A DNA stretch of 64,000 nucleotides. Source: Escherichia coli (GTDB taxonomy: Bacteria > Pseudomonadota > Gammaproteobacteria > Enterobacterales > Enterobacteriaceae). Positions 7,334 through 40,750 of this stretch are shown piece by piece. The notes below the pieces were generated by a model, which was not told the DNA's origin, searched no databases, and was given only the letters and a program-made list of their open reading frames with translations. Location of the stretch: assembly GCF_013315695.1 (NCBI RefSeq), contig NZ_CP054353.1; one strand, given 5' to 3'. A program made the position numbers and the translations under genes. Every line of letters begins with the position of its first letter. The stretch's first letter is position 1.

Positions 7334-7846
7334 TCAGCCAAGTCCCAGCATGGAGCGGGTGCGATCAGGCAGCACATCCTTGCCATCAACGCGCCAGATG
7401 AAGTTCAGCACGTCGATTTCAATAACATCGCTGTTATCAACGCTGAGCTTGTACCAGGTGCATTTCATCGCGTAGGTGTGTTCGGTATCTTCACCCTGTT
7501 TGGCCTCGCCCTTGTCGATTTCGACAATGCGACCACGGGCTTCAATATCGACGTACTCAATCCCTTCTTCGGAATAGTATTCACCCGAGAAGCGCACGCG
7601 TACCGCATCAATGCCAGCGGCATATTTGGCAAAGATGTGACGATCCATACCGCCAACCGCAAAGGAGAGATCCAGCGCACCATCATCAAGACCGAGATCC
7701 ACCGCCGCAGAGCCTGGCATACCCGCACCACGATATGCTTCCGTCTTGCGGGTCAGTTTCGGTGGGGTGAAGGAGGTCACCTTACCCAGTTTGTTGTCAC
7801 CGTCCACAAAGACGGTAAACACACGAAGTTTTTTTGGTACGGCCAT
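7334..7846 (-). CDS. phage tail tube protein, P2 gpFII-like
   Basis: 170 aa; resembles remembered P2 FII (PKLTRK..YRGAGM motif). Confidence 0.85.
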   Translation of the reverse strand: MAVPKKLRVFTVFVDGDNKLGKVTSFTPPKLTRKTEAYRGAGMPGSAAVDLGLDDGALDLSFAVGGMDRHIFAKYAAGIDAVRVRFSGEYYSEEGIEYVDIEARGRIVEIDKGEAKQGEDTEHTYAMKCTWYKLSVDNSDVIEIDVLNFIWRVDGKDVLPDRTRSMLGLG

Positions 7847-18849: not shown

Positions 18850-18983
18850 GAAAGGCTCTCCAGGTTACAGGCTTTTCCTGCCCGATGCTAAAACGGACAA
18901 CAGTACCAGGTTACCCCAGTACTGTTGCTGTATGGATTAACAGGAGTGTAATCAAAATACGCCGATTTTGCACCTGTTCCGTG

Positions 18984-22877: not shown

Positions 22878-24599
22878 ATGCGCGCTTTGCTACCCTATCT
22901 GGCACTGTATAAACGTCATAAATGGATGTTAAGTCTTGGTATTGTGCTGGCAATTGTCACGCTGCTCGCCAGTATCGGTCTGTTGACACTTTCCGGCTGG
23001 TTCCTCTCCGCCTCAGCGGTAGCGGGGGTTGCCGGACTGTACAGCTTCAACTATATGCTACCCGCTGCGGGCGTGCGTGGCGCAGCAATCACCCGTACTG
23101 CCGGGCGCTATTTTGAACGTCTGGTAAGTCACGACGCGACTTTCCGCGTGTTGCAGCATCTGCGCATTTATACCTTCAGCAAATTGCTGCCCCTCTCCCC
23201 TGCCGGACTGGCGCGCTATCGTCAGGGCGAATTGCTCAACCGCGTGGTGGCGGATGTTGATACGCTCGATCATCTTTACCTGCGCGTTATCTCGCCGCTG
23301 GTGGGCGCTTTTGTGGTGATTATGGTGGTGACAATCGGGTTAAGTTTCCTTGATTTCACCCTCGCCTTTACGCTGGGCGGCATTATGTTACTGACGCTTT
23401 TCCTTATGCCACCACTGTTTTATCGTGCGGGAAAAAGCACCGGGCAAAATCTGACTCATCTTCGCGGGCAGTATCGCCAACAACTGACGGCCTGGCTGCA
23501 AGGGCAAGCTGAGCTGACCATTTTTGGTGCCAGCGATCGTTATCGCACGCAGTTAGAGAATACCGAAATTCAGTGGCTGGAAGCGCAACGTCGTCAATCT
23601 GAACTCACCGCATTGTCGCAAGCGATAATGCTGCTCATTGGCGCGTTAGCGGTGATCCTGATGCTGTGGATGGCGTCTGGCGGCGTTGGCGGCAATGCTC
23701 AACCCGGCGCGTTAATTGCCCTGTTTGTCTTCTGCGCGTTAGCCGCGTTTGAAGCACTGGCACCAGTAACGGGTGCATTTCAGCATCTGGGGCAAGTCAT
23801 TGCCTCTGCCGTACGGATCACTGACTTAACGGATCAAAAACCGGAGGTCACCTTCCCTGATACCCAAACTCGTGTTGCCGATCGCGTTTCGCTGACGTTA
23901 CGGGATGTTCAGTTCACTTATCCGGAGCAATCCCAACAGGCACTTGAAGGGATTTCTCTTCAGGTAAACGCCGGAGAACATATAGCGATTCTCGGGCGAA
24001 CCGGATGCGGCAAATCAACATTGTTACAACTGCTGACCCGCGCATGGGACCCGCAACAGGGCGAGATTTTGCTTAACGATAGCCCCATAGCCAGCCTGAA
24101 TGAAGCGACTCTACGACAGACCATCAGCGTTGTGCCACAGCGAGTGCATCTGTTTAGCGCCACGCTGCGTGATAATCTGTTACTCGCCTCACCTGGCAGT
24201 AGTGATGAGGCTCTGGCGGAGATCTTACGTCGCGTTGGTCTGGAGAAGCTGCTCGAGGATGCAGGTCTCAACAGTTGGTTAGGTGAAGGCGGACGCCAGC
24301 TCTCCGGTGGTGAACTGCGCCGTCTGGCTATCGCCCGTGCGCTGTTACATGATGCGCCGCTGGTATTGCTGGATGAACCTACAGAAGGCTTAGATGCCAC
24401 AACCGAAAGTCAGATCCTTGAATTGCTTGCAGAAATGATGTGCGAGAAAACGGTGTTAATGGTCACCCATCGACTTCGCGGACTCTCTCGTTTCCAACAA
24501 ATAATAGTGATGGACAACGGGCAAATTATTGAGCAAGGTACTCACGCAGAACTGCTTGCCAGACAGGGGCGTTATTACCAGTTTAAGCAGGGTTTGTAA
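22878..24599 (+). CDS. cydC: cysteine/glutathione ABC exporter subunit CydC
   Basis: 573 aa; adjacent to cydD; ABC motifs. Confidence 0.95.
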   Translation: MRALLPYLALYKRHKWMLSLGIVLAIVTLLASIGLLTLSGWFLSASAVAGVAGLYSFNYMLPAAGVRGAAITRTAGRYFERLVSHDATFRVLQHLRIYTFSKLLPLSPAGLARYRQGELLNRVVADVDTLDHLYLRVISPLVGAFVVIMVVTIGLSFLDFTLAFTLGGIMLLTLFLMPPLFYRAGKSTGQNLTHLRGQYRQQLTAWLQGQAELTIFGASDRYRTQLENTEIQWLEAQRRQSELTALSQAIMLLIGALAVILMLWMASGGVGGNAQPGALIALFVFCALAAFEALAPVTGAFQHLGQVIASAVRITDLTDQKPEVTFPDTQTRVADRVSLTLRDVQFTYPEQSQQALEGISLQVNAGEHIAILGRTGCGKSTLLQLLTRAWDPQQGEILLNDSPIASLNEATLRQTISVVPQRVHLFSATLRDNLLLASPGSSDEALAEILRRVGLEKLLEDAGLNSWLGEGGRQLSGGELRRLAIARALLHDAPLVLLDEPTEGLDATTESQILELLAEMMCEKTVLMVTHRLRGLSRFQQIIVMDNGQIIEQGTHAELLARQGRYYQFKQGL

Positions 24600-29157: not shown

Positions 29158-29328
29158 TGTCAGTTATCATCTTCGGTTACGGTTATCGGCAGAACGCCCT
29201 GCCGCTGACAAGAGCTTATTTGCCTGACCAATCTACTCCACATGATAGATAACTATCATTTATAACATCTCATTGATTAGTCTTTATTTTTCATTGTGTT
29301 ACAAATAACAGCTCTGTCAAAAACAGCG

Positions 29329-29355
29329 AAATTAACTACACCATTAACTACACCG
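29329..29355. repeat. 27-bp direct repeat AAATTAACTACACCATT(A/G)ACTACACCG, left copy (right copy 40368-40394); candidate integrase binding or att sequence
   Basis: two copies, one mismatch, each followed by clustered CGAACAA motifs (29356-29395 and 40400-40510). Confidence 0.5.
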
Positions 29356-30293
29356 TTTCACGAACAATATCGAACAACCACGAACAAAGATCAACACGCT
29401 TTAACCGTTATCATTTTCCGGCTATCCGTTATGAAGCTGGTGGATGTTCCCCGATATGGGGATCCCCACCTACCGGAATTTTTGCCAGGTTAAATGTTAA
29501 CCTCTGCCCTGTTAACATTTTTACCAAAAAGGTAGTTAACATTTTTTGCACGCAACCAGATGAATCATAAAGAAAAAATCAACAACAACGCTTCATCAGG
29601 CAGTTAACATGTTAACTACTACGAAACGGTAATTTTTTCTCTGCGTGAGAGGGGGCGCGGTGTCCAGCTTATTCGTTGTTCGTGGCTAACCACTCCCCCC
29701 CCATGCCGGATTTTTTTTCCGGTTAACTGTTAATCAGGCTGGTGGGTTTTACATACCCTTGATCACCGTAATGATGATCCAGATCTGCACATTTCCACCA
29801 ATGGTGGAAAAGCCCACAGCAGGCCGCCCAGCCTCCACCAATGGGGTAAAAGCATCAACCGTAACGAAAGTCGTTATGGTTGCCACCGATACCCCAAATT
29901 TGGGTATCACGAGTAAGCCCCAAAATCTGGGTGTTACTCTTACCACCCAAACTACGGGTAGTTTCCGTAGTTTCATGGTCGAGTTGCAGATCTGCAACTC
30001 CCCCATTAACCACAGGCGAATTTCCGCCTTCGGTCATTCCTTAATCATCTGCGTAATCATAATGATTATTCAGCAAGCGCAATTTTGCGCTTTGCTTAAA
30101 GTTCAGCGAGTTACCGCGCCGACTTCCTCAAATTGAGGTTTCCGAAAATATCAGCGGGTTAGCGATTAAGCTGATCATTAATTAAACTGCGAAAATTTCG
30201 TAGTTTGTGACTGTCTTTCAGGCAGCTTGTTAACAGTCCTCAGAAGCGAGGGATGTAGCCACCCATTTTTGGTCCGTCGGGAATATCAACCAG

Positions 30294-30575: not shown

Positions 30576-30610
30576 TGTGCCCCCATCGTTCTGATAGTCT
30601 GGTGTCGTCG

Positions 30611-30840
30611 GGTCCTTCCTGGAATTATGGCCCGTTACGGGGCGGCGACCTCGCGGTTTTTCGCTATTTATGAGATTTTTTGAGGGGGTGGTTGTTGTTT
30701 AATTGTTTGGTATATCTAATTGATAAGTAAGGTAAAAATAAAATAAATACAACAACCTTACGATGTATTTTGATGTCATTAATGTGAAAAAATTCAATGA
30801 TATCAAATGGTTTTGTAAAAACACATGGTTGTTGTATCGC
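30611..30840 (+). other. lambda-type cos site, copy 1 (cosQ-like, cosN GGGCGGCGACCT at 30640-30651, cosB-like region pointing rightward)
   Basis: GGGTCCTTCC..GTTACG-GGGCGGCGACCT-CGCGGTTTTTCGCTATTTATGAG closely matches remembered lambda cos; three GGTTGTTGT repeats (30690, 30749 inverted, 30828) as candidate TerS sites. Confidence 0.6.
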
Positions 30841-31008: not shown

Positions 31009-31206
31009 ACTTCCGGTTAACGGGTACGATGTCCGGTTTTAGTGTCTGTTTTTTGCGCATGTCCGGTTCATAGAAAGCATGTTTTTATATTTTTCATATG
31101 GTTAACTTGCAGAGAAACCGGACATGGATCCCGGAAAATTTTCATAAATAGTGAAAACGCGCGAGGTCGCCGCCCCGTAACGGGTCCATATGCCGGAAAG
31201 GACCCG
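31009..31206 (-). other. lambda-type cos site, copy 2, inverted (cosN on the minus strand at 31164-31175, cosB-like region pointing leftward)
   Basis: minus strand reads GGGTCCTTTCCGG..CCCGTTACG-GGGCGGCGACCT-CGCGCGTTTTCACTATTTATGAAAATTTTCCGG, near-identical to remembered lambda cosQ-cosN-R3; three ATGTCCGGTT repeats (31029, 31059, 31116 inverted). Confidence 0.65.
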
Positions 31207-31208
31207 TA

Positions 31209-31233
31209 AAAAAAAGCCGGATTTCTCCGGCCT
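31209..31233 (-). terminator. rho-independent terminator ending the island capsid operon
   Basis: minus strand GGCCGGAGAAATCCGGC followed by T8, directly after the 137-aa gene stop. Confidence 0.55.
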
Positions 31234-31237
31234 TGTC

Positions 31238-31651
31238 TCAGATGGTTTTCAGTATGCGATCGATGTCGCCGTCATCGCCCTGGTTTCTGCCATCGTACGC
31301 CATGCCAGCTGATACGGCTTGCGGGCTGTGCATGTCCATAAAGTTTTCAAAGGCTGCGGTAAGCTCTGGTGCAACCTTTGGGCGCTCCTGCTCTATGGTC
31401 ATGTTCAGGATTTCACGAGCATTATCGACGCTAATACATGGCACGTTTGCCATTGCACGTAACAGCGGCTGATAGTCGTTATGTTCATGAAGCGCCATAA
31501 TCGCATCAGCGCGCGGCTTGTCCTGTTCTTCCAGTTTGTTGAGTTGATATACGGCCTCGTAGGTTGATAAACCTCTGTCAGCCATTGCCCGCGCTTCTGC
31601 TTTAAATTTACTCGCCAGCGGTAGCGCCATGATGCTTTCATTCGTTGCCAT
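31238..31651 (-). CDS. hypothetical protein (137 aa), last gene of the capsid operon
   Basis: ATG with AGGGGAA SD; no family recognised; candidate packaging-redirection factor by position only. Confidence 0.5.
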   Translation of the reverse strand: MATNESIMALPLASKFKAEARAMADRGLSTYEAVYQLNKLEEQDKPRADAIMALHEHNDYQPLLRAMANVPCISVDNAREILNMTIEQERPKVAPELTAAFENFMDMHSPQAVSAGMAYDGRNQGDDGDIDRILKTI

Positions 31652-31663
31652 CGTTTCCCCTGC

Positions 31664-31999
31664 TTATCGCGCCAGCGGCTGAACGGATACGCCAGAACCC
31701 GCAAAGGCGGCGCATTTTTTCGCGTCAGTGTCGGCGCTCTCAGGCCAGTTTACGGCGGCGATATTAAATATCCCCGTCTTGTAACACTGTGCTGATTTCT
31801 GCTTTGACGTGTCCACGGGGTACGAAGTCAGATAAACAGCCTTGCCAGATTCCTGACCATCCCACGGCTTAAACTCGCCATTGTCCGCCAGCATCAGCGG
31901 GGTAAATTCCTGAATAACGCCAGCATCAGCGGCAAAATGTACCAGCGTCGTGGATACCTGCTGACTGCCTGCAAATAACTCAATGTATGGAGTGTCCAT
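31664..31999 (-). CDS. head decoration protein, lambda gpD-like
   Basis: 111 aa; shares TPLMLD, WDG, YK(S/T)G.F, WPE, AFAG motifs with remembered lambda gpD (110 aa). Confidence 0.65.
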   Translation of the reverse strand: MDTPYIELFAGSQQVSTTLVHFAADAGVIQEFTPLMLADNGEFKPWDGQESGKAVYLTSYPVDTSKQKSAQCYKTGIFNIAAVNWPESADTDAKKCAAFAGSGVSVQPLAR

Positions 32000-32011: not shown

Positions 32012-33067
32012 TTAACCAATTTTGACGGTAACAAATTTGCGAATATCTGCCGGAACCGGCTGCGGTGCGCTGTGCGTCTGCACGTACTCAATCGCCGGAT
32101 CGCCGTCCTCAATCCAGTTTTTCGGGTAAAACATGTTTTGCGTTGCGCCCGTTCTTACCGCTTCCTGTTCCAGGATCGCACCATAGGCCACCAGCCCTTT
32201 ATTGTTGGTGTTGCCCAGGACCAGCAAATCAGGCTCAAGGAAATATTTTTCTGTGCCGTCGCTGTCAGTGTATTTGCCGGAATAGACGATAAGGGCCAGA
32301 TCACCAAGATAGCCTTTAAAGCTCACCACTTCGCCCAGGTTTTTACATGCCAGCTCTGCGGCGGATTCTGAACCACGGGAGAGATCGTACAGTTCACGGA
32401 ATTTTTTAAAGCTGCGTAACATGCGCCATACATCAACGCCCATAATCATGACGTTTGCGGGGCAACCTGCCTGATCTGCGTATAGCTCAATGTCATAGAT
32501 TGGGTCGTGTATGTCTTTGTCCTGCTCTGACCATTTTTTACCGTCGGCCTGCTCTATGATGTTTTTTTCCGGTATCTTCCAGTCGATTTCATAGCGCTCT
32601 ATGCCTTCGCCCTCAATGATGTTTTTTCCGGTCGTTACCGCATTTACCGCCAGCCATTCCACGCGCGCTTTAATGGCGTTTATCTGGCGGCGCATGTTGC
32701 CAGTAATCAGGCGCATACGGCGGTAGGTAGGGTCGTTAAGCTGTGCTGGATCTTCTCCAGCCATGCGCATTATTGTTTTTAATGGATCGATTTCGTGTTT
32801 TGGCTTCATGTAGCCAGGGCGAATAATGCTTGTTTCGTACCCTTTATCGCGCTGAACCTGGCTACCCACCATAGGCGAACAAAACGCCGACATAGTGACT
32901 TCTTCAATATCCAGGTTATCTAACATGATGTCCTGTGTGTTGAATGTCGCCACGTTCGGGAAAAACAGCGCGGTAAACAGCGGACTGAATTTAAATTCCG
33001 CAATATCCTCGCGATTCAGGTACGCAAAAAGCTGGTTAGTGTTAAGTGCTATTGCTTTTACTGTCAT
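32012..33067 (-). CDS. major capsid protein, lambda gpE family
   Basis: 351 aa; collinear similarity to remembered lambda gpE (FKF.PLF..LFF, PGY(V/M)KPKHE, DP.YRR.R, YPKNW..GDPA, SAP); start overlaps the upstream stop (TAATG). Confidence 0.85.
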   Translation of the reverse strand: MTVKAIALNTNQLFAYLNREDIAEFKFSPLFTALFFPNVATFNTQDIMLDNLDIEEVTMSAFCSPMVGSQVQRDKGYETSIIRPGYMKPKHEIDPLKTIMRMAGEDPAQLNDPTYRRMRLITGNMRRQINAIKARVEWLAVNAVTTGKNIIEGEGIERYEIDWKIPEKNIIEQADGKKWSEQDKDIHDPIYDIELYADQAGCPANVMIMGVDVWRMLRSFKKFRELYDLSRGSESAAELACKNLGEVVSFKGYLGDLALIVYSGKYTDSDGTEKYFLEPDLLVLGNTNNKGLVAYGAILEQEAVRTGATQNMFYPKNWIEDGDPAIEYVQTHSAPQPVPADIRKFVTVKIG

Positions 33068-33273
33068 TATTCACCCCCGTGAACCTGATTCATACCCAGC
33101 GCCGCGCGTAAATAGGCGCGTACCTGCCAGCCTGTTGACGGCTCAACCATCGCCAGCGGATCAAGTCCTGCCGCAATGCCTGCTTTTACGTTCTGCTGGT
33201 GGCGTTCCTTGAGCGCCTTCACGATGTCGGGGCTTATGTACACCGAAACACCGCCTTTTTTCTCTTCAGCCAT
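33067..33273 (-). CDS. hypothetical protein (68 aa), first gene of the capsid operon
   Basis: ATG with AAGAGG SD; translationally coupled to the capsid gene. Confidence 0.5.
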   Translation of the reverse strand: MAEEKKGGVSVYISPDIVKALKERHQQNVKAGIAAGLDPLAMVEPSTGWQVRAYLRAALGMNQVHGGE

Positions 33274-33302
33274 AGTAAGAAATTCCTCTTTGACTTAAAA
33301 AA

Positions 33303-33357
33303 TCATAACTGGATGTTCATCCAGTTATGATTATAATCATGATTGCATTTTGTGCAA
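33303..33357 (-). promoter_or_regulatory. promoter of the island capsid operon with a 28-bp palindromic operator
   Basis: minus strand TTGCAC-N16-TATAAT immediately followed by perfect palindrome TCATAACTGGATGAACATCCAGTTATGA. Confidence 0.5.
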
Positions 33358-33527
33358 TGATATTGAGTTGCGTTGCAAATTATGAAATTATTATCCCGAT
33401 CATGTGTGTCAGTGCACCAAAAAACCTCATATGCAAAAGCCCGATAAGCCACCTCTGACCTTATCGGGCTTTTTTTGGGCGCAAAAAAGCCGGATTGCTC
33501 CGGCTGTGTGGTGTGGTTCTGGTATTC

Positions 33528-33776
33528 CTACTCTGCTAATTTGCTCAGCCCCATGTCTGCGTAAGTGCGATTTACTGCATTTCTCAGGTCTGCATAGTTC
33601 TCCGTTGGCGGCTCCGGTGGCCTCTGTGCCTTCCTGGAACATTCCAGCCGTCGCATCGTGATGTGATGCCGTTCCTTGTCTGTCTCCACCAGCATCATGA
33701 CTTCACCCCATCGCGCCGCCGCCCTCCGGTAAAATCCTTTCGCTTCGAGTTCTTCCGCTATGCGGTCATGTACCAT
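33528..33776 (-). CDS. small regulator, possibly PerC/Pch-family transcriptional activator
   Basis: 83 aa from ATG 33776 with GAGGGGG SD; LEAKGFYRRAAARWGEV resembles the PerC-family core as remembered; weak call. Confidence 0.35.
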   Translation of the reverse strand: MVHDRIAEELEAKGFYRRAAARWGEVMMLVETDKERHHITMRRLECSRKAQRPPEPPTENYADLRNAVNRTYADMGLSKLAE

Positions 33777-34469: not shown

Positions 34470-34805
34470 GAAACATGTGCGGGTTATGCGGGTTATTGGG
34501 TTATCTTAGCGTGCTAACCATTTTTTATCCTTTTATATCAGTATTTTGCAAAACACCCTGTTTATTATTTGCCCACCACGTAACCCGCAAAACGCTCAAA
34601 ATAACCCGCAAACGGGGTTTTTTCTGCGGGTTACGCATGACTGTCCGGTGTTACTTCAGTTATTCGCCTGCGGGTTATAATCGTGCTTTTGCGGGTTATA
34701 AATGCCCTTTTGCGGGTTACGTGCGGGTTATTGGTTTCCTTTATATTCATGCACTTAATACACTTATACACAGGATAACCCGCATAACCCGCAATTTTTT
34801 TCCTC
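34470..34805. repeat. iteron array, candidate replication origin of the island
   Basis: at least 12 copies of GCGGGTTAT / ATAACCCGC in both orientations within ~330 bp of AT-rich DNA, directly downstream of the primase-replicase gene. Confidence 0.65.
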
Positions 34806-34815
34806 ACACAGGGGA

Positions 34816-36939
34816 TTAATCTTCATCATCAGGCTGGAACATCAGCACGTAAAAAACATGCTGCTTACCCCCAATCTTGCCCAGCGCCTTTTTTTTGTAT
34901 CGGCGATCGCTTCCCTTCTCCAGCATTCCGGCAGCATCCAGGGCACGCGCAAAATGCGCCGGATTAAATCCCTTCGCTATCTCACTCTCAAACACGTGCG
35001 GGAACGTGTAATAGCGCATCTCGTCATCTTCGTTGCGAATGCTCCCTTTTCTGTATCCGGCAAGCTCTTTAATCGGTAAATCACGCTCATCTGTATTGGG
35101 GTACGGAAGGTAGCGGCTAAACCCAAACGACGACAAAAACGCCTCAGCCTGTTCAACCATCTGTTTAAATTCCCTGTTACCCGTGCCGAACTCCTTCACC
35201 CAGGCATTAAAGTTATGCTGTATCGCGTCGCGGCATTCCTGCACGACCCAGCCAGTTACATGACCGGAAAGCACAAGCGCGGCCTCCAGTATGGCGAAAC
35301 GTTCACCCACGCGGTGGACCTGCTCGCCGTAGCTCTCCGGTATCAGGTTGCGCCACCGTTCGCGGCATTCCCTTACCGTATCCTTTGCCTCCTGCTGGTG
35401 GCCTGCCAGCCATTTAACCCACTCACGACCCGCCGCCCCGTGATTTGCTGTCCAGGCATCCTTTAACGCGTCAGCATGTTCCTTACCGTTGCTGTATTCG
35501 TGAAATTTCGTGGCTTTTTCCATCGGAACGTTAAGCAGTCGGACAAGCTGCCCCGCCTTAACTTTTATCCCCTCACTTTTGAGGAATGTCTCAACGTCCA
35601 TTTCTCCGGTGCTGATTGCCACCGTTCGCCAGTGTTTGATCTCCCTGTTGCCGCCATCCTTCGCCCCCTGCAATTTCCCTGAACCGTTAAACAGCGTATA
35701 AGCAGACGTTGACACTTCCCGCGCATTTCCGGCCTGGCCTATCTCATCCAGTGGTAAAAGCCCGTCATTATGGGCCTCGGCCTCATTGGCAATACCTAAC
35801 GCCGTGCCGTACCAGGTCAGCCGCTGCGCGTCCGGCTCTCCCCATAAACTTGATGCGATGTTCTGCGTGGTGGTCTTACCTGCCGATGACTGTTCGAAAA
35901 GATGCACCCCGAAGCCGTCAGCACCCACAAGGCCAATTAAAGGCGCTGCCAGTGACGTTGCCACACCCAGCATCATTGAGGCATTACCGCCAGCCAGCCG
36001 CGCCACACTCTCGCGCCAGCCCTCCGCCGTACCCGCCACGGAATAACCGTTAATCGCGGCGCTTTTTCCGGTAAACAGGATCGGTTTTTCAGAATCACCA
36101 ATGATCGAACCGTCCGGCATGATGTACGCGCCAAAATGCCAGCCCGTTGTTGTGCTTAACTGCCATTCCTCATGGCTTCCGCTTAACTGCATCCAGTCCG
36201 CCAGGATTGCCCTGTATTTGCCGTTGGTTGTCACGTTCAGCCCGTGATCTTTAAGTAACCGCCAGCCGTCACGGTCGCCGATACCACCACACGGGATCGC
36301 CATTGTGATGACTTCATGATTTGCTAATTTTTTCCAGCGCATGACGCGGTAATGCTCTTTACCGATCGTCCCCGTTCCCAGTAGTTCAAGCGGAGAACAT
36401 AACCACGTCTCAGGCCGGATAATTTCGCCTGACTGCTTATCCACTTTGGGCGTTACCCAGAAAACACCATCGGCGCGACTTTCAACGCGTGGCTTTAATT
36501 CGTCATCGCTATGGCTTCCGGTATCTTTTTTCTTTACCGGAAACTCAATAACCAGACCATCAGAAAGATTCTGCCGCTCACGGGCCAGATATTCGCGCCA
36601 GTTCTCCACCTCCTGACCGTGCATTCCATCAGGGTAAAAATTTGCATCCTGTACGCCTGCCGCCGCCAGCTTCTGACCAATCGCCTTGATCATTACTGGC
36701 TCAAGATGTCCGGCCCTGAATATGCGTACTGATTTTCGGCCTTCCGGCACAATTTGCAGCTTATCCAGTTCGGCAAGTTGTTGCTCTCCAAGCCAGACAG
36801 GAGGCACGTTATCGCCAGCCAGTCGCCCGTCCTGTTCCTGCCACTGTTTCGCATGTGCCCAGGCATCACTACCCGCAAAAATGATGACTTCCGTCATTTT
36901 GTCACGTGGCTGGTGTTTTAAATTTGGCGCTTTTTTCAT
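34816..36939 (-). CDS. primase/replicase (P4 alpha-like or PICI Pri-Rep-like)
   Basis: ~707 aa from ATG 36939; Walker A-like SSAGKTT; position next to the iteron ori; ATG overlaps the upstream stop. Confidence 0.75.
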   Translation of the reverse strand: MKKAPNLKHQPRDKMTEVIIFAGSDAWAHAKQWQEQDGRLAGDNVPPVWLGEQQLAELDKLQIVPEGRKSVRIFRAGHLEPVMIKAIGQKLAAAGVQDANFYPDGMHGQEVENWREYLARERQNLSDGLVIEFPVKKKDTGSHSDDELKPRVESRADGVFWVTPKVDKQSGEIIRPETWLCSPLELLGTGTIGKEHYRVMRWKKLANHEVITMAIPCGGIGDRDGWRLLKDHGLNVTTNGKYRAILADWMQLSGSHEEWQLSTTTGWHFGAYIMPDGSIIGDSEKPILFTGKSAAINGYSVAGTAEGWRESVARLAGGNASMMLGVATSLAAPLIGLVGADGFGVHLFEQSSAGKTTTQNIASSLWGEPDAQRLTWYGTALGIANEAEAHNDGLLPLDEIGQAGNAREVSTSAYTLFNGSGKLQGAKDGGNREIKHWRTVAISTGEMDVETFLKSEGIKVKAGQLVRLLNVPMEKATKFHEYSNGKEHADALKDAWTANHGAAGREWVKWLAGHQQEAKDTVRECRERWRNLIPESYGEQVHRVGERFAILEAALVLSGHVTGWVVQECRDAIQHNFNAWVKEFGTGNREFKQMVEQAEAFLSSFGFSRYLPYPNTDERDLPIKELAGYRKGSIRNEDDEMRYYTFPHVFESEIAKGFNPAHFARALDAAGMLEKGSDRRYKKKALGKIGGKQHVFYVLMFQPDDED

Positions 36940-37235
36940 TTCTGCTCTCTCCACGCGGCAATCATGTTTTTCAGTTCCTGTAGTTTTTTATCCACATCCA
37001 CACGTGACACATGGTTATTTCTGGAAGTCGGGATTTCCCGCCTGAATCTGCTAATAAAGATCTCCACGTTCAGCGAACTATGAAATGAATAGCCATCACG
37101 AATAAAATACACACGGTCAAACATCAGTTCTTTTACCGTTACTCTGTTGCCGTTCTTATCCAGATAAATAGCGCCGGGGATAATTTTGGGGTGTGCATAA
37201 CCGCTGGCAGTCAAGCCAGATAAATATGTTCTCAT
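36936..37235 (-). CDS. hypothetical protein (99 aa)
   Basis: ATG start; coupled to the primase. Confidence 0.45.
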   Translation of the reverse strand: MRTYLSGLTASGYAHPKIIPGAIYLDKNGNRVTVKELMFDRVYFIRDGYSFHSSLNVEIFISRFRREIPTSRNNHVSRVDVDKKLQELKNMIAAWREQK

Positions 37236-38698: not shown

Positions 38699-39107
38699 AC
38701 AAAAACCTACATAAAAATTACGTATATAAACTTTTCTCTTAGCTGTAGATATATGAGATCGGATATTACTTAGATTCTTTTTCACCTCTTAAATTAAAAA
38801 CACAACCATGCTAAAGGCTTTGTTCGCTAAGGTTCGTAGAAGCTCGTTAGTGTTTAAAATCGTGTCACGAGTTTTTAAGCGACGCAACAAAAAATGTCGT
38901 TATTTGGCATGACACCTGAATTACCTCATTAAAAACAAATAGATAAACCATCAGGTGTTGGAACAATCAAGAAACAGAGAATAAGAACTAAGAAGAAGAC
39001 ATTTCAAATTTTTTCAATACTTGACACATATAAATCGTCGATATTTGCCGATATTCGACGATTTATTTTAGAGGGCCATTTTTCGCAAGAAAAACAGCCG
39101 TAATTTG

Positions 39108-40346
39108 TCAAGAATTTTGGGAGTAAATTCGCGGGGTCATAACAACGATTTTTTCATCATTGTTCTGGAGAAGCTCGAGACGCTCAACCCATAGATTAAG
39201 AGCGTCACGTTTTGCATCGAGATAACGGGAGTGATTATAGACTCGTTGCATTCCTGGCAACTGGTGCGCGGTTAGCTGCTCCACTACATGAGGATCCACG
39301 CCTAAATCGTTCAGCATCGTTGTAAACGTGTGCCGGATGTCGTGCAACGTCCAGGGGGCTTGATTAATGCGTCTGTGTGCCGTTCTTCCGTACTCTGATA
39401 CAGATGATTGCCCTTTCAGTTCTCCGAGTAATAAGCCCGTGTGTCGGTTCTGCTCCACCAGCTTCGTTACGAACGGCAAGATCGCTTCCGGTATTGGCCT
39501 GAATATTGCTACCTTCGTTTTGCTGTGTTCTTTCGGCACAGTCCAGAGCATTTCTTTAAAATCCCATTCCTGGACCTCAGAGCGTCTTAGCTCAGTGGTA
39601 CGGCATCCGAAGACAATCAGGAGGCGAATCAGGGCGCTGTAGTACGGTGTGTAAATTTTTTCATCCAGGGCGCGTAGTAATTCCCCAAGCTCCTTGTTTG
39701 TTAGTACGCGCTCGCTTATTTCTGCTTTTTTCCCAACATCACCTACAACCATATCATCTAGAACGTTGGTAATTGCGTAGCGTCGTTTGCGGCAGTACTT
39801 AAGCGCCTGCTTGCATACCTGTAACAAAAATCCTGCTGATACCGGATTACGCATAGCAAGCTGATCAAAACAGGTCAGCCAGTGGCGTAGCTCGCATTTT
39901 TCCAGCGGCATAGCACCAATATGGCTGATTATGTGTGTATTGATCCGGCTTTTCAGAGATTCGTAATCTGTGCGCTTTTCCTTCGCGTACGATTCAAGCC
40001 AGTAAGTGAGCGCTTCCTTAACCGTAACAGGTGATAACGCTTCCTGTACGGTGTGATTAAGCTCATGGCGTGGATTTTTACCCTCAGCAAGCCAGGCGCG
40101 ACACTGCGACGCTTTTTCCCTGGCTGCTTTCAGGCTCAAATCTGGATAATTTCCCAGCCTCAGACGTTCAGGGGCTACCTTCCTGCCTGTTCCGGCCCTG
40201 TAAGTGAAATACCAGGTTAACAGGCCATTGGTTGAATGCCTTACGCTAAGGTTGCCACCATCATTAAAAAAGGTGTTTTTTGTGGTTGGTGATCCGCTTA
40301 ATTTTCGTAAAAGAGTGTCGCTAAGTCTATGAATTGCCCTGCTCAT
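39108..40346 (-). CDS. tyrosine site-specific integrase (P4-type)
   Basis: 412 aa; C-terminal catalytic motifs (R..TELRRSE, HDIRHTF, Y near the C-terminus); at the island edge. Confidence 0.9.
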   Translation of the reverse strand: MSRAIHRLSDTLLRKLSGSPTTKNTFFNDGGNLSVRHSTNGLLTWYFTYRAGTGRKVAPERLRLGNYPDLSLKAAREKASQCRAWLAEGKNPRHELNHTVQEALSPVTVKEALTYWLESYAKEKRTDYESLKSRINTHIISHIGAMPLEKCELRHWLTCFDQLAMRNPVSAGFLLQVCKQALKYCRKRRYAITNVLDDMVVGDVGKKAEISERVLTNKELGELLRALDEKIYTPYYSALIRLLIVFGCRTTELRRSEVQEWDFKEMLWTVPKEHSKTKVAIFRPIPEAILPFVTKLVEQNRHTGLLLGELKGQSSVSEYGRTAHRRINQAPWTLHDIRHTFTTMLNDLGVDPHVVEQLTAHQLPGMQRVYNHSRYLDAKRDALNLWVERLELLQNNDEKIVVMTPRIYSQNS

Positions 40347-40750
40347 GTTTCGAATTTCCGGTCATCAAAATTAACTACACCATTGACTACACCGAGCATC
40401 GTACAAGGGCGAACTGTGACGAACAAGGGCGAACAAGAAAAACGAAATTATCCTTTATAATCATAGAAATAAATGAGATACCTACACCATGACGAACACC
40501 CACGAACACTAACTGATAAATAACTATCATCTATCGTTGGCATCAGCGACATCTGTCACATTCCTGTCAATAGCGTTAACTGCTTCAAATTTTTGATTCA
40601 TACCTGCCCCCTGGCCCCTGTCAAATGCTTGACGGCTCGCCCTAATTCTCTAAATTGTATTTCTAGAGTTGGCGAGGTTTTGAACAGCCCCCTCTCTGAC
40701 CCCGGTTTATTCCATCTTACTTGTATAAGATTTGCGAAGGATGTCGAAGC

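Follow-up and report, generated by a model that had tools for sequence, protein, structure and literature searches.

A predicted LexA box over the promoter of the capsid-homologue operon in an EcCICFT073-type PICI of Escherichia coli

The window, i.e. the whole 64-kb stretch of DNA that was analysed, is filled by E. coli chromosome, with trxB, cydDC, aat, infA, clpA and clpS on one side and cspD and macB on the other. Between clpS and cspD an 11-kb PICI of the EcCICFT073 type is inserted, as shown by the open reading frames and the RefSeq annotation of an identical E. coli genome, from which the gene map was made. Gram-negative PICIs of this type are approximately 10-15 kb in size and carry int, alpA, a primase and origin, a late module and att repeats, without tail or lysis genes. 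On the minus strand, the island consists of the integrase gene, an AlpA-type regulator gene, small genes, a DUF927 primase gene, iterons, an SSB gene, a PerC-family gene, two terminators and the capsid-homologue operon, in that order. The assignment to the Gram-negative PICIs is based on this gene map, the flanking repeats, the iterons, and the gene order and promoter of EcCICFT073. This prototype (Fillol-Salom et al. 2018, 2019) shares the order int, alpA, primase, SSB, PerC and c1498-c1501, and its capsid-operon promoter and palindrome are identical to those of the window; an island of O157:H7 contains a close variant with the box described below. In distinction to the prototype, the island of the window is located between clpS and cspD and has no Nu1-type small-terminase/Rpp gene, which is seen in relatives. 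The genes and terminators referred to below are the following.

39108-40346, minus strand: integrase (island open reading frame)
34816-36954, minus strand: DUF927 primase (island open reading frame)
33435-33505, minus strand: two terminator-like hairpins upstream of the operon (sequence reading and terminator scan)
33067-33273, minus strand: first operon gene, 68 aa, homologue of c1498, with its ATG at 33273
32012-33067, minus strand: homologue of the lambda gpE-type major capsid protein, 351 aa, homologue of c1499 (Pfam PF03864, phrog_29, RefSeq)
31664-31999, minus strand: homologue of the head decoration protein (gpD-type), 111 aa, homologue of c1500 (phrog_49, RefSeq)
31238-31651, minus strand: 137-aa protein (Nu3-like), homologue of c1501 (phrog_1999)
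31213-31234, minus strand: terminator-like hairpin ending the four-gene operon (terminator scan)

The 68-aa protein is possibly ribbon-helix-helix-like. Residues 45-119 of the 137-aa protein match positions 494-567 of phrog_53, a family of lambda-type head maturation proteases, at its C-terminal end; judged by this match, the protein resembles the C-terminal scaffold part of such a protease.

Some further elements of the island were observed. Direct repeats of 73 nt (73% identical, containing AACTACACCATTRACTACA) flank the island at 29324-29396 and 40363-40435 and probably represent attL and attR. Just 3' of the primase gene, at 34471-34800, TGCGGGTTAT repeats in both direct and inverted orientation form a cluster, which is probably the replication origin of the island (iterons). 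A 10-bp inverted repeat, AAATCGTCGA-N13-TCGACGATTT, is found at 39032-39064, after the stop codon of the integrase gene and before the alpA promoter region. Downstream of the operon, inverted repeats of 72 nt (83% complementary, 30609-30680 and 31135-31206) bracket a 454-nt segment at the site which is occupied by the Nu1-type small-terminase/Rpp gene in related islands. Pieces of this segment were found in approximately 1,600 E. coli genomes, in unannotated DNA.

The first of the two hairpins upstream of the operon consists of AGCCGGAGCAATCCGGCT and a T-run (33505-33488), the second of GCCCGATAAG...CTTATCGGGC followed by TTTT (33469-33435). Their stems are kept in relatives and the loop is variable, and islands that differ upstream become homologous from the second terminator onward. 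The two hairpins are predicted to act as insulators between the SSB and PerC genes and the operon. Published RNA-seq data of strain CFT073 show the operon as a transcription unit of its own. Upon a shift from 23 to 37 C, c1498, c1499, c1500 and c1501 changed together and decliningly, by +2.24, +2.05, +1.45 and +1.17 log2, and the upstream SSB gene c1497 stood apart with a non-significant 0.24 log2 (PMC12890032 supplement).

The promoter region contains the features below. The initial annotation had placed TTGCAC-N16-TATAAT upstream of a 28-bp palindrome, an AAGAGG ribosome-binding site and the 68-aa gene on the minus strand; all of these are present, as is a T-run after the palindrome.

33373-33387, unstranded: palindrome O2, TTTCATAATTTGCAA, a one-mismatch copy 30 bp upstream of O1, at about -64 to -50
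33343-33357, unstranded: palindrome O1, TTGCACAAAATGCAA (TTGCA-N5-TGCAA), at about -34 to -20
33352-33357, minus strand: -35-like hexamer TTGCAC, inside O1, 3/6 match to TTGACA
33330-33335, minus strand: -10 hexamer TATAAT, 6/6 consensus, 16-nt spacer after the -35-like hexamer
33301-33332, unstranded: extended inverted repeat with 15-nt arms AATCATAACTGGATG (33332-33318) and CATCCAGTTATGATT (33315-33301) and a 2-nt centre
33307-33326, unstranded: predicted LexA (SOS) box AACTGGATGAACATCCAGTT, CTG-N10-CAG (matrix score and conservation)
33297-33302, minus strand: T-run of the leader
33285-33290, minus strand: ribosome-binding site AAGAGG, separated from the ATG at 33273 by 11 nt (sequence reading)

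In 58 distinct promoter variants (loci L001-L252) the -10 hexamer was TATAAT in 51, TAAAAT in 6 and TGTAAT in one; of the -35-like hexamer TTGC is conserved, positions 5 and 6 being variable. TTGCAC-N16-TATAAT is the sole TTGNNN-N16-18-TATAAT on either strand of the 64-kb window. The promoter had been called near-consensus, which is accurate for the perfect -10 and generous for a -35 with three of six matches and a 16-nt spacer; these two features are also the reason why a consensus scanner did not list it. Taken together, the hexamers, the 16-nt spacer, the conservation of the -10, the upstream terminators and the regulation of c1498-c1501 apart from c1497 identify a conserved sigma-70-type promoter in front of the capsid-homologue operon, as had been proposed. 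The transcription start is predicted near 33323/33322. Further downstream, the T-run and AGTCAAAGAGG are conserved even in alleles without the hairpin, so the T-run is part of a conserved leader rather than a terminator tail, and the region of the ribosome-binding site, CAAAGAGG, is conserved in nearly all lineages. The promoter region has a G + C content of 29%, whereas that of the island is 48%. A search of 33000-33700 against Rfam gave no match at the gathering score, and the promoter region had no match among 50,697 phage records. In 5,426 complete E. coli genomes the wider region was matched in 946, and a 60-nt core in at least 217.

The string TCATAACTGGATGAACATCCAGTTATGA that had been reported as a perfect 28-bp palindrome is present at 33330-33303, with 13-nt arms around an AA centre that is itself not symmetric; the inverted repeat as a whole extends to the 15-nt arms listed above. 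It is operator-like and, as stated in the initial annotation, overlaps the predicted start site, while its left arm overlaps the -10. A terminator scan flags the hairpin and T-run as terminator-like, with a 14-pair stem, and a fully transcribed hairpin would have a folding energy of -19.8 kcal/mol. If TATAAT is the -10, however, only a 5-bp stem is left in the transcript. The structure differs from an intrinsic terminator in that its left arm lies over the -10, it is absent in alleles that lack the box, and it reaches only -6.1 kcal/mol in Lelliottia. The core of the palindrome, AACTGGATGAACATCCAGTT, begins 3 nt after TATAAT and spans about -3 to +17 of the predicted start. LexA-repressed promoters typically have their box in such a position.

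For a quantitative comparison, a LexA matrix was built from 18 published UV-induced E. coli boxes (PMC3009722 Table 4), each of which was scored by leave-one-out. AACTGGATGAACATCCAGTT scores 20.5 bits and beats 9 of the 18 published boxes. The corresponding probability is 7.3e-8 per position, so that 0.005 matches would be expected in 64 kb and 0.36 in a genome. No other sequence in the window scores higher. The second-best match is the ftsK/dinH LexA box, whose published sequence is found in reverse complement, as TGCTGTATGGATTAACAGGA, at 18926-18945; it served as an internal positive control. In addition, a LexA-like sequence, TGCTGGATGAACCTACAGAA (24367-24386, 14.6 bits), lies within the cydC coding region and is probably fortuitous.

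LexA-like geometry had already been recognised in the palindrome, and the CTG-N10-CAG core bears this out. LexA itself had been set aside on account of the CTGG/CCAG half-sites. This ground fails, since the ruvA box CGCTGGATATCTATCCAGCA and the cho box CACTGGATAGATAACCAGCA read CTGG-N8-CCAG (PMC3009722 Table 4); half-sites of the CTGG/CCAG type account for 9 of the 36 in that table by our count. Like the site of the window, the SOS boxes of ruvAB and cho (ydjQ) are 20-bp CTG-N10-CAG sequences of the form CTGG...CCAG, next to or over a promoter, and their matrix scores are 18.4 and 19.6 bits, respectively, compared with 20.5 bits here. Unlike these two, the site of the window is located in a mobile satellite instead of at a DNA-repair gene, its symmetry exceeds the LexA 20-mer by 6 bp on each side, and it is a predicted site.

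Conservation was assessed in 82 related loci from IMG/VR and E. coli genomes, comprising 52 distinct upstream sequences. CTGGAT/ATCCAG is invariant across the 82 loci, and CTG-N10-CAG is kept in 81. The positions flanking the box vary: TCATAA is replaced by TCAGGA, TCAGAG, TCAGAT or TCACAA, often without a matching change in the opposite arm, and 12 of 23 distinct variants have no pairing between the outer columns 11 and 32. Compensation is seen for a few changes of the outer arms (TCACAA/TTGTGA and TCAGGA/TCCTGA), and many arm changes are G-U compatible on the mRNA strand. In the ATACAG variant a stem pair is broken, yet the sequence is closer to the ACAG consensus. The following boxes are found in more diverged lineages.

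Salmonella (capsid 67% identical): box GACTGGATGAAAATCCAGTA, 20.5 bits, same position
L092 (capsid 65% identical): box TGCTGGATGTTTATCCAGTT, 22.1 bits, beginning 17 nt after the -10 instead of 3
Lelliottia (capsid 57% identical): box CACTGTTTTTTCATACAGTT, 21.1 bits, with canonical CTGT/ACAG half-sites

Across these lineages the LexA score holds at 20.5-22.1 bits, while the hairpin energy drops from -17.7 to -6.1 kcal/mol in Lelliottia; Salmonella retains the outer ATCAT/ATGAT despite an indel. The conserved feature is the fit to LexA and not the long palindrome or an RNA stem. A search of genome contigs with the capsid protein confirmed no relative. Searches of viral contigs with the Lelliottia-type capsid gave no match, and those with the L092-type and Salmonella-type capsids mostly returned the same E. 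coli contigs.

Not all alleles contain the box. It is absent in a group of E. coli loci (L084, L085, L149, L211 and L243), in Edwardsiella and in L093; in the E. coli group and Edwardsiella the remainder of the promoter is retained together with the T-run and the ribosome-binding site, so that LexA control would be dispensable for the family. The 51 promoters with a box have TATAAT or TGTAAT as the -10, and all six TAAAAT promoters are box-less, in a comparison that is not phylogenetically independent. The single exception to this association among the 58 distinct variants carries a 1-nt insertion in the spacer. The association of TATAAT with the box would fit a strong -10 that needs a repressor, and suggests two regulatory allele types, TATAAT with the box and TAAAAT without it. 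Strong LexA-like sites were also seen elsewhere in PICIs that have no box at the capsid operon (L084, 223-242; L085, 12106-12125; L087, 815-834), among them AACTGTACAAAAAAACAGTA just after the integrase gene and CACTGTTTAAATATCCAGAT upstream of a DNA methylase gene. Capsid-bearing PICIs (L086-L088, about 7402-7756) contain neither the 68-aa gene nor the O1/O2 motif; in these the position downstream of the decoration gene, which in the window belongs to the 137-aa gene, is taken by a second gene of the AlpA family (114-117 aa).

A second palindrome, TTGCATTTTGTGCAA, had been reported to overlap the -35 region and was located at 33343-33357, where it corresponds to O1. Among the 58 distinct variants O1 has no mismatches in 43 and one mismatch in 11, and O2 is identical in 48. 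The motif is present in Salmonella, in the box-less alleles and in Edwardsiella, which contains two perfect O1-type copies 32 bp apart, so that the pair predates the LexA box. It shows deeper conservation than the box and is not a LexA site. The significance of O1/O2 lies in this conservation and not in rarity, as O1-type motifs are no rarer than chance (5 found, 4.65 expected). The pair is probably bound by a satellite-specific regulator other than LexA. AlpA was considered as the binder and rejected on the weak negative evidence that the motif is absent upstream of alpA.

In CFT073 (L095, 23463-25497, EcCICFT073) the shift from 23 to 37 C raised c1498-c1501 2- to 4.7-fold. Since sulA and dinI were not induced in the same experiment (PMC12890032 supplement), this rise is not an SOS effect and another control exists: LexA repression would be either incomplete or not the sole control. 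A promoter region of 29% G + C would suit thermoregulation of the H-NS type. In O157 RNA-seq data (PMC5931665) the neighbourhood of pchE/ECs1588 proved to be a different, capsid-forming island, and the primers published for ECs1588 and ECs1388 have no match in the O157 copy of the window-type island.

Based on the comparisons described above, we consider it likely, with a probability of roughly 0.7, that host LexA has its box in the palindrome core and that this box ties the capsid-homologue operon to the SOS response. The start site, the binding of LexA and the repression are all inferred. Sigma-70 RNA polymerase would start near 33323, using TATAAT (33335-33330) and TTGCAC as a weak -35. As long as the cell is undamaged, a LexA dimer on the start site would repress the operon; upon DNA damage, activated RecA would lead to self-cleavage of LexA and free the promoter. 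The same SOS signal induces lambdoid helper prophages. A different regulator would act at O1/O2, centred at about -27 and -57, and may be a dedicated one. The initial annotation had the capsid genes probably kept off by a dedicated repressor at the long palindrome until a helper signal arrives. The notion of a helper signal holds only in so far as SOS, in inducing lambdoid helper prophages, would also lift LexA.

The dedicated repressor is unnecessary to explain the palindrome, because conservation across lineages follows the LexA motif and not the long palindrome, with a score in the middle of the range of validated boxes. In its full form this alternative makes the 28-32-bp palindrome the operator of an island- or helper-encoded repressor that reads CTGG/CCAG and more, LexA being irrelevant. 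The reach of the symmetry to 15-nt arms, past the LexA 20-mer, speaks for it, as do the compensatory outer-arm changes, the outer ATCAT/ATGAT of Salmonella, and a first gene that may encode a small ribbon-helix-helix-like DNA binder. Nevertheless, we regard it as distinctly unlikely: about half of the distinct variants lack the outer pairing of columns 11 and 32, Lelliottia and L092 keep just a 20-bp LexA-type site between different flanks, no candidate repressor co-varies with the site, none of the phage records matches the promoter region, and the LexA match alone has a P of 7e-8. Shared ancestry explains much of the identity, as most of the compared loci are 82-100% identical here, and natural box-less alleles exist. 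A palindrome without any regulatory role, present by chance or as a relic inherited in closely related islands, is nonetheless highly improbable, given that the core is invariant while directly neighbouring positions vary, that lineages with 57-67% capsid identity carry independent box sequences, and that 0.005 such matches are expected by chance per window.

The hairpin and T-run could also be seen as a leader terminator or attenuator that is bypassed by a Q-like or AlpA-like antiterminator loading at TTGCA-N5-TGCAA; in a variant of this idea, the promoter might lie further upstream, with TATAAT as its sigma-dependent pause site. The P. aeruginosa AlpA and lambda Q systems (PMC7969949, PMC9371919) resemble the window in having an element between the -35 and the -10 and a hairpin with a T-run before the first gene. 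O1 thus lies where AlpA- and Q-binding elements lie, P. aeruginosa AlpA loading at the alpB element (PMC7969949). The window island likewise encodes an AlpA-family protein, AlpA being the known activator of such islands, and the scanner call of the 14-pair stem, the stability of the full hairpin, the G-U compatible arm changes and an upstream TTCATA-N18-TATCAT match agree with antitermination as well. Unlike in those systems, however, the left arm overlaps the -10 and would not be transcribed if TATAAT is the -10, only a 5-bp stem remaining, and related alleles have a weak hairpin or none. Hairpin-less alleles still have the T-run, O1, O2 and the ribosome-binding site, and in Lelliottia the hairpin is down to -6 kcal/mol with a LexA score still at 21 bits. 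The sequence of O1 is unrelated to the AlpA-binding motif GGGACG-N5-GGTA (PMC7969949), and no copy of its motif occurs in the promoter region of alpA, which AlpA reportedly activates. As the main promoter, TTCATA-N18-TATCAT was rejected: its -10 candidate is not conserved (TTTCGT, TTGCAT or TCGTAT in relatives), in contrast to TATAAT/TAAAAT. Antitermination is therefore given little credence. A broader reading, which we think unlikely, is that the promoter integrates three inputs: LexA over the start, a satellite regulator at O1/O2 (-27 and -57), and temperature or H-NS on the 29%-GC region. Candidates for the regulator at O1/O2 would then be the ribbon-helix-helix-like protein of the first operon gene and AlpA in a Q-like role, while box-less alleles with a weakened -10 would form a second regulatory type. 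In the extreme version of this reading, O1 would load an AlpA-type antiterminator and the LexA palindrome would double as the terminator.

The LexA box as the most probable reading has a parallel in the SaPIs. SaPI operon I is described as being under LexA control (Ubeda et al. 2007, Mol Microbiol 65:41, as cited in PMC6092414 and PMC6739421), and, as predicted for the window, it is a PICI operon for capsid morphogenesis and packaging under host LexA, apart from the master switch. The Gram-negative host, the LexA motif and the promoter are all unrelated to those of SaPI operon I, and control in the window is predicted. The genes also differ: cpmA/B, terS and ppi in SaPI operon I and homologues of lambda E, D and Nu3 in the window, with no sequence homology between them. 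The likeness looks like convergence, not homology. The induction of Gram-negative PICIs has been reported to depend on AlpA and a helper phage and not on SOS (PMC6092414); that study measured alpA expression and not the capsid-operon promoter. In the open-access papers on Gram-negative PICIs that were examined, LexA was found mentioned only where the SaPI operon I paper is cited, and no description of a capsid-operon box or of LexA control was found.

The promoter-operator reading of the initial annotation was thus right in kind, the operator being most likely a standard LexA box, and the view that CTGG/CCAG half-sites exclude LexA is corrected. The O1/O2 pair marks the probable site of action of a satellite-specific regulator. 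If true, LexA control would add a direct host input to PICIs that have been described as controlled by AlpA and helper, explicitly not by SOS. The predicted box on the capsid-operon promoter is present in EcCICFT073, O157:H7 and at least 217 of the 5,426 complete E. coli genomes, and lexA alleles, mitomycin C and the natural box-less alleles would provide a handle on when and why the capsid-homologue genes are made.
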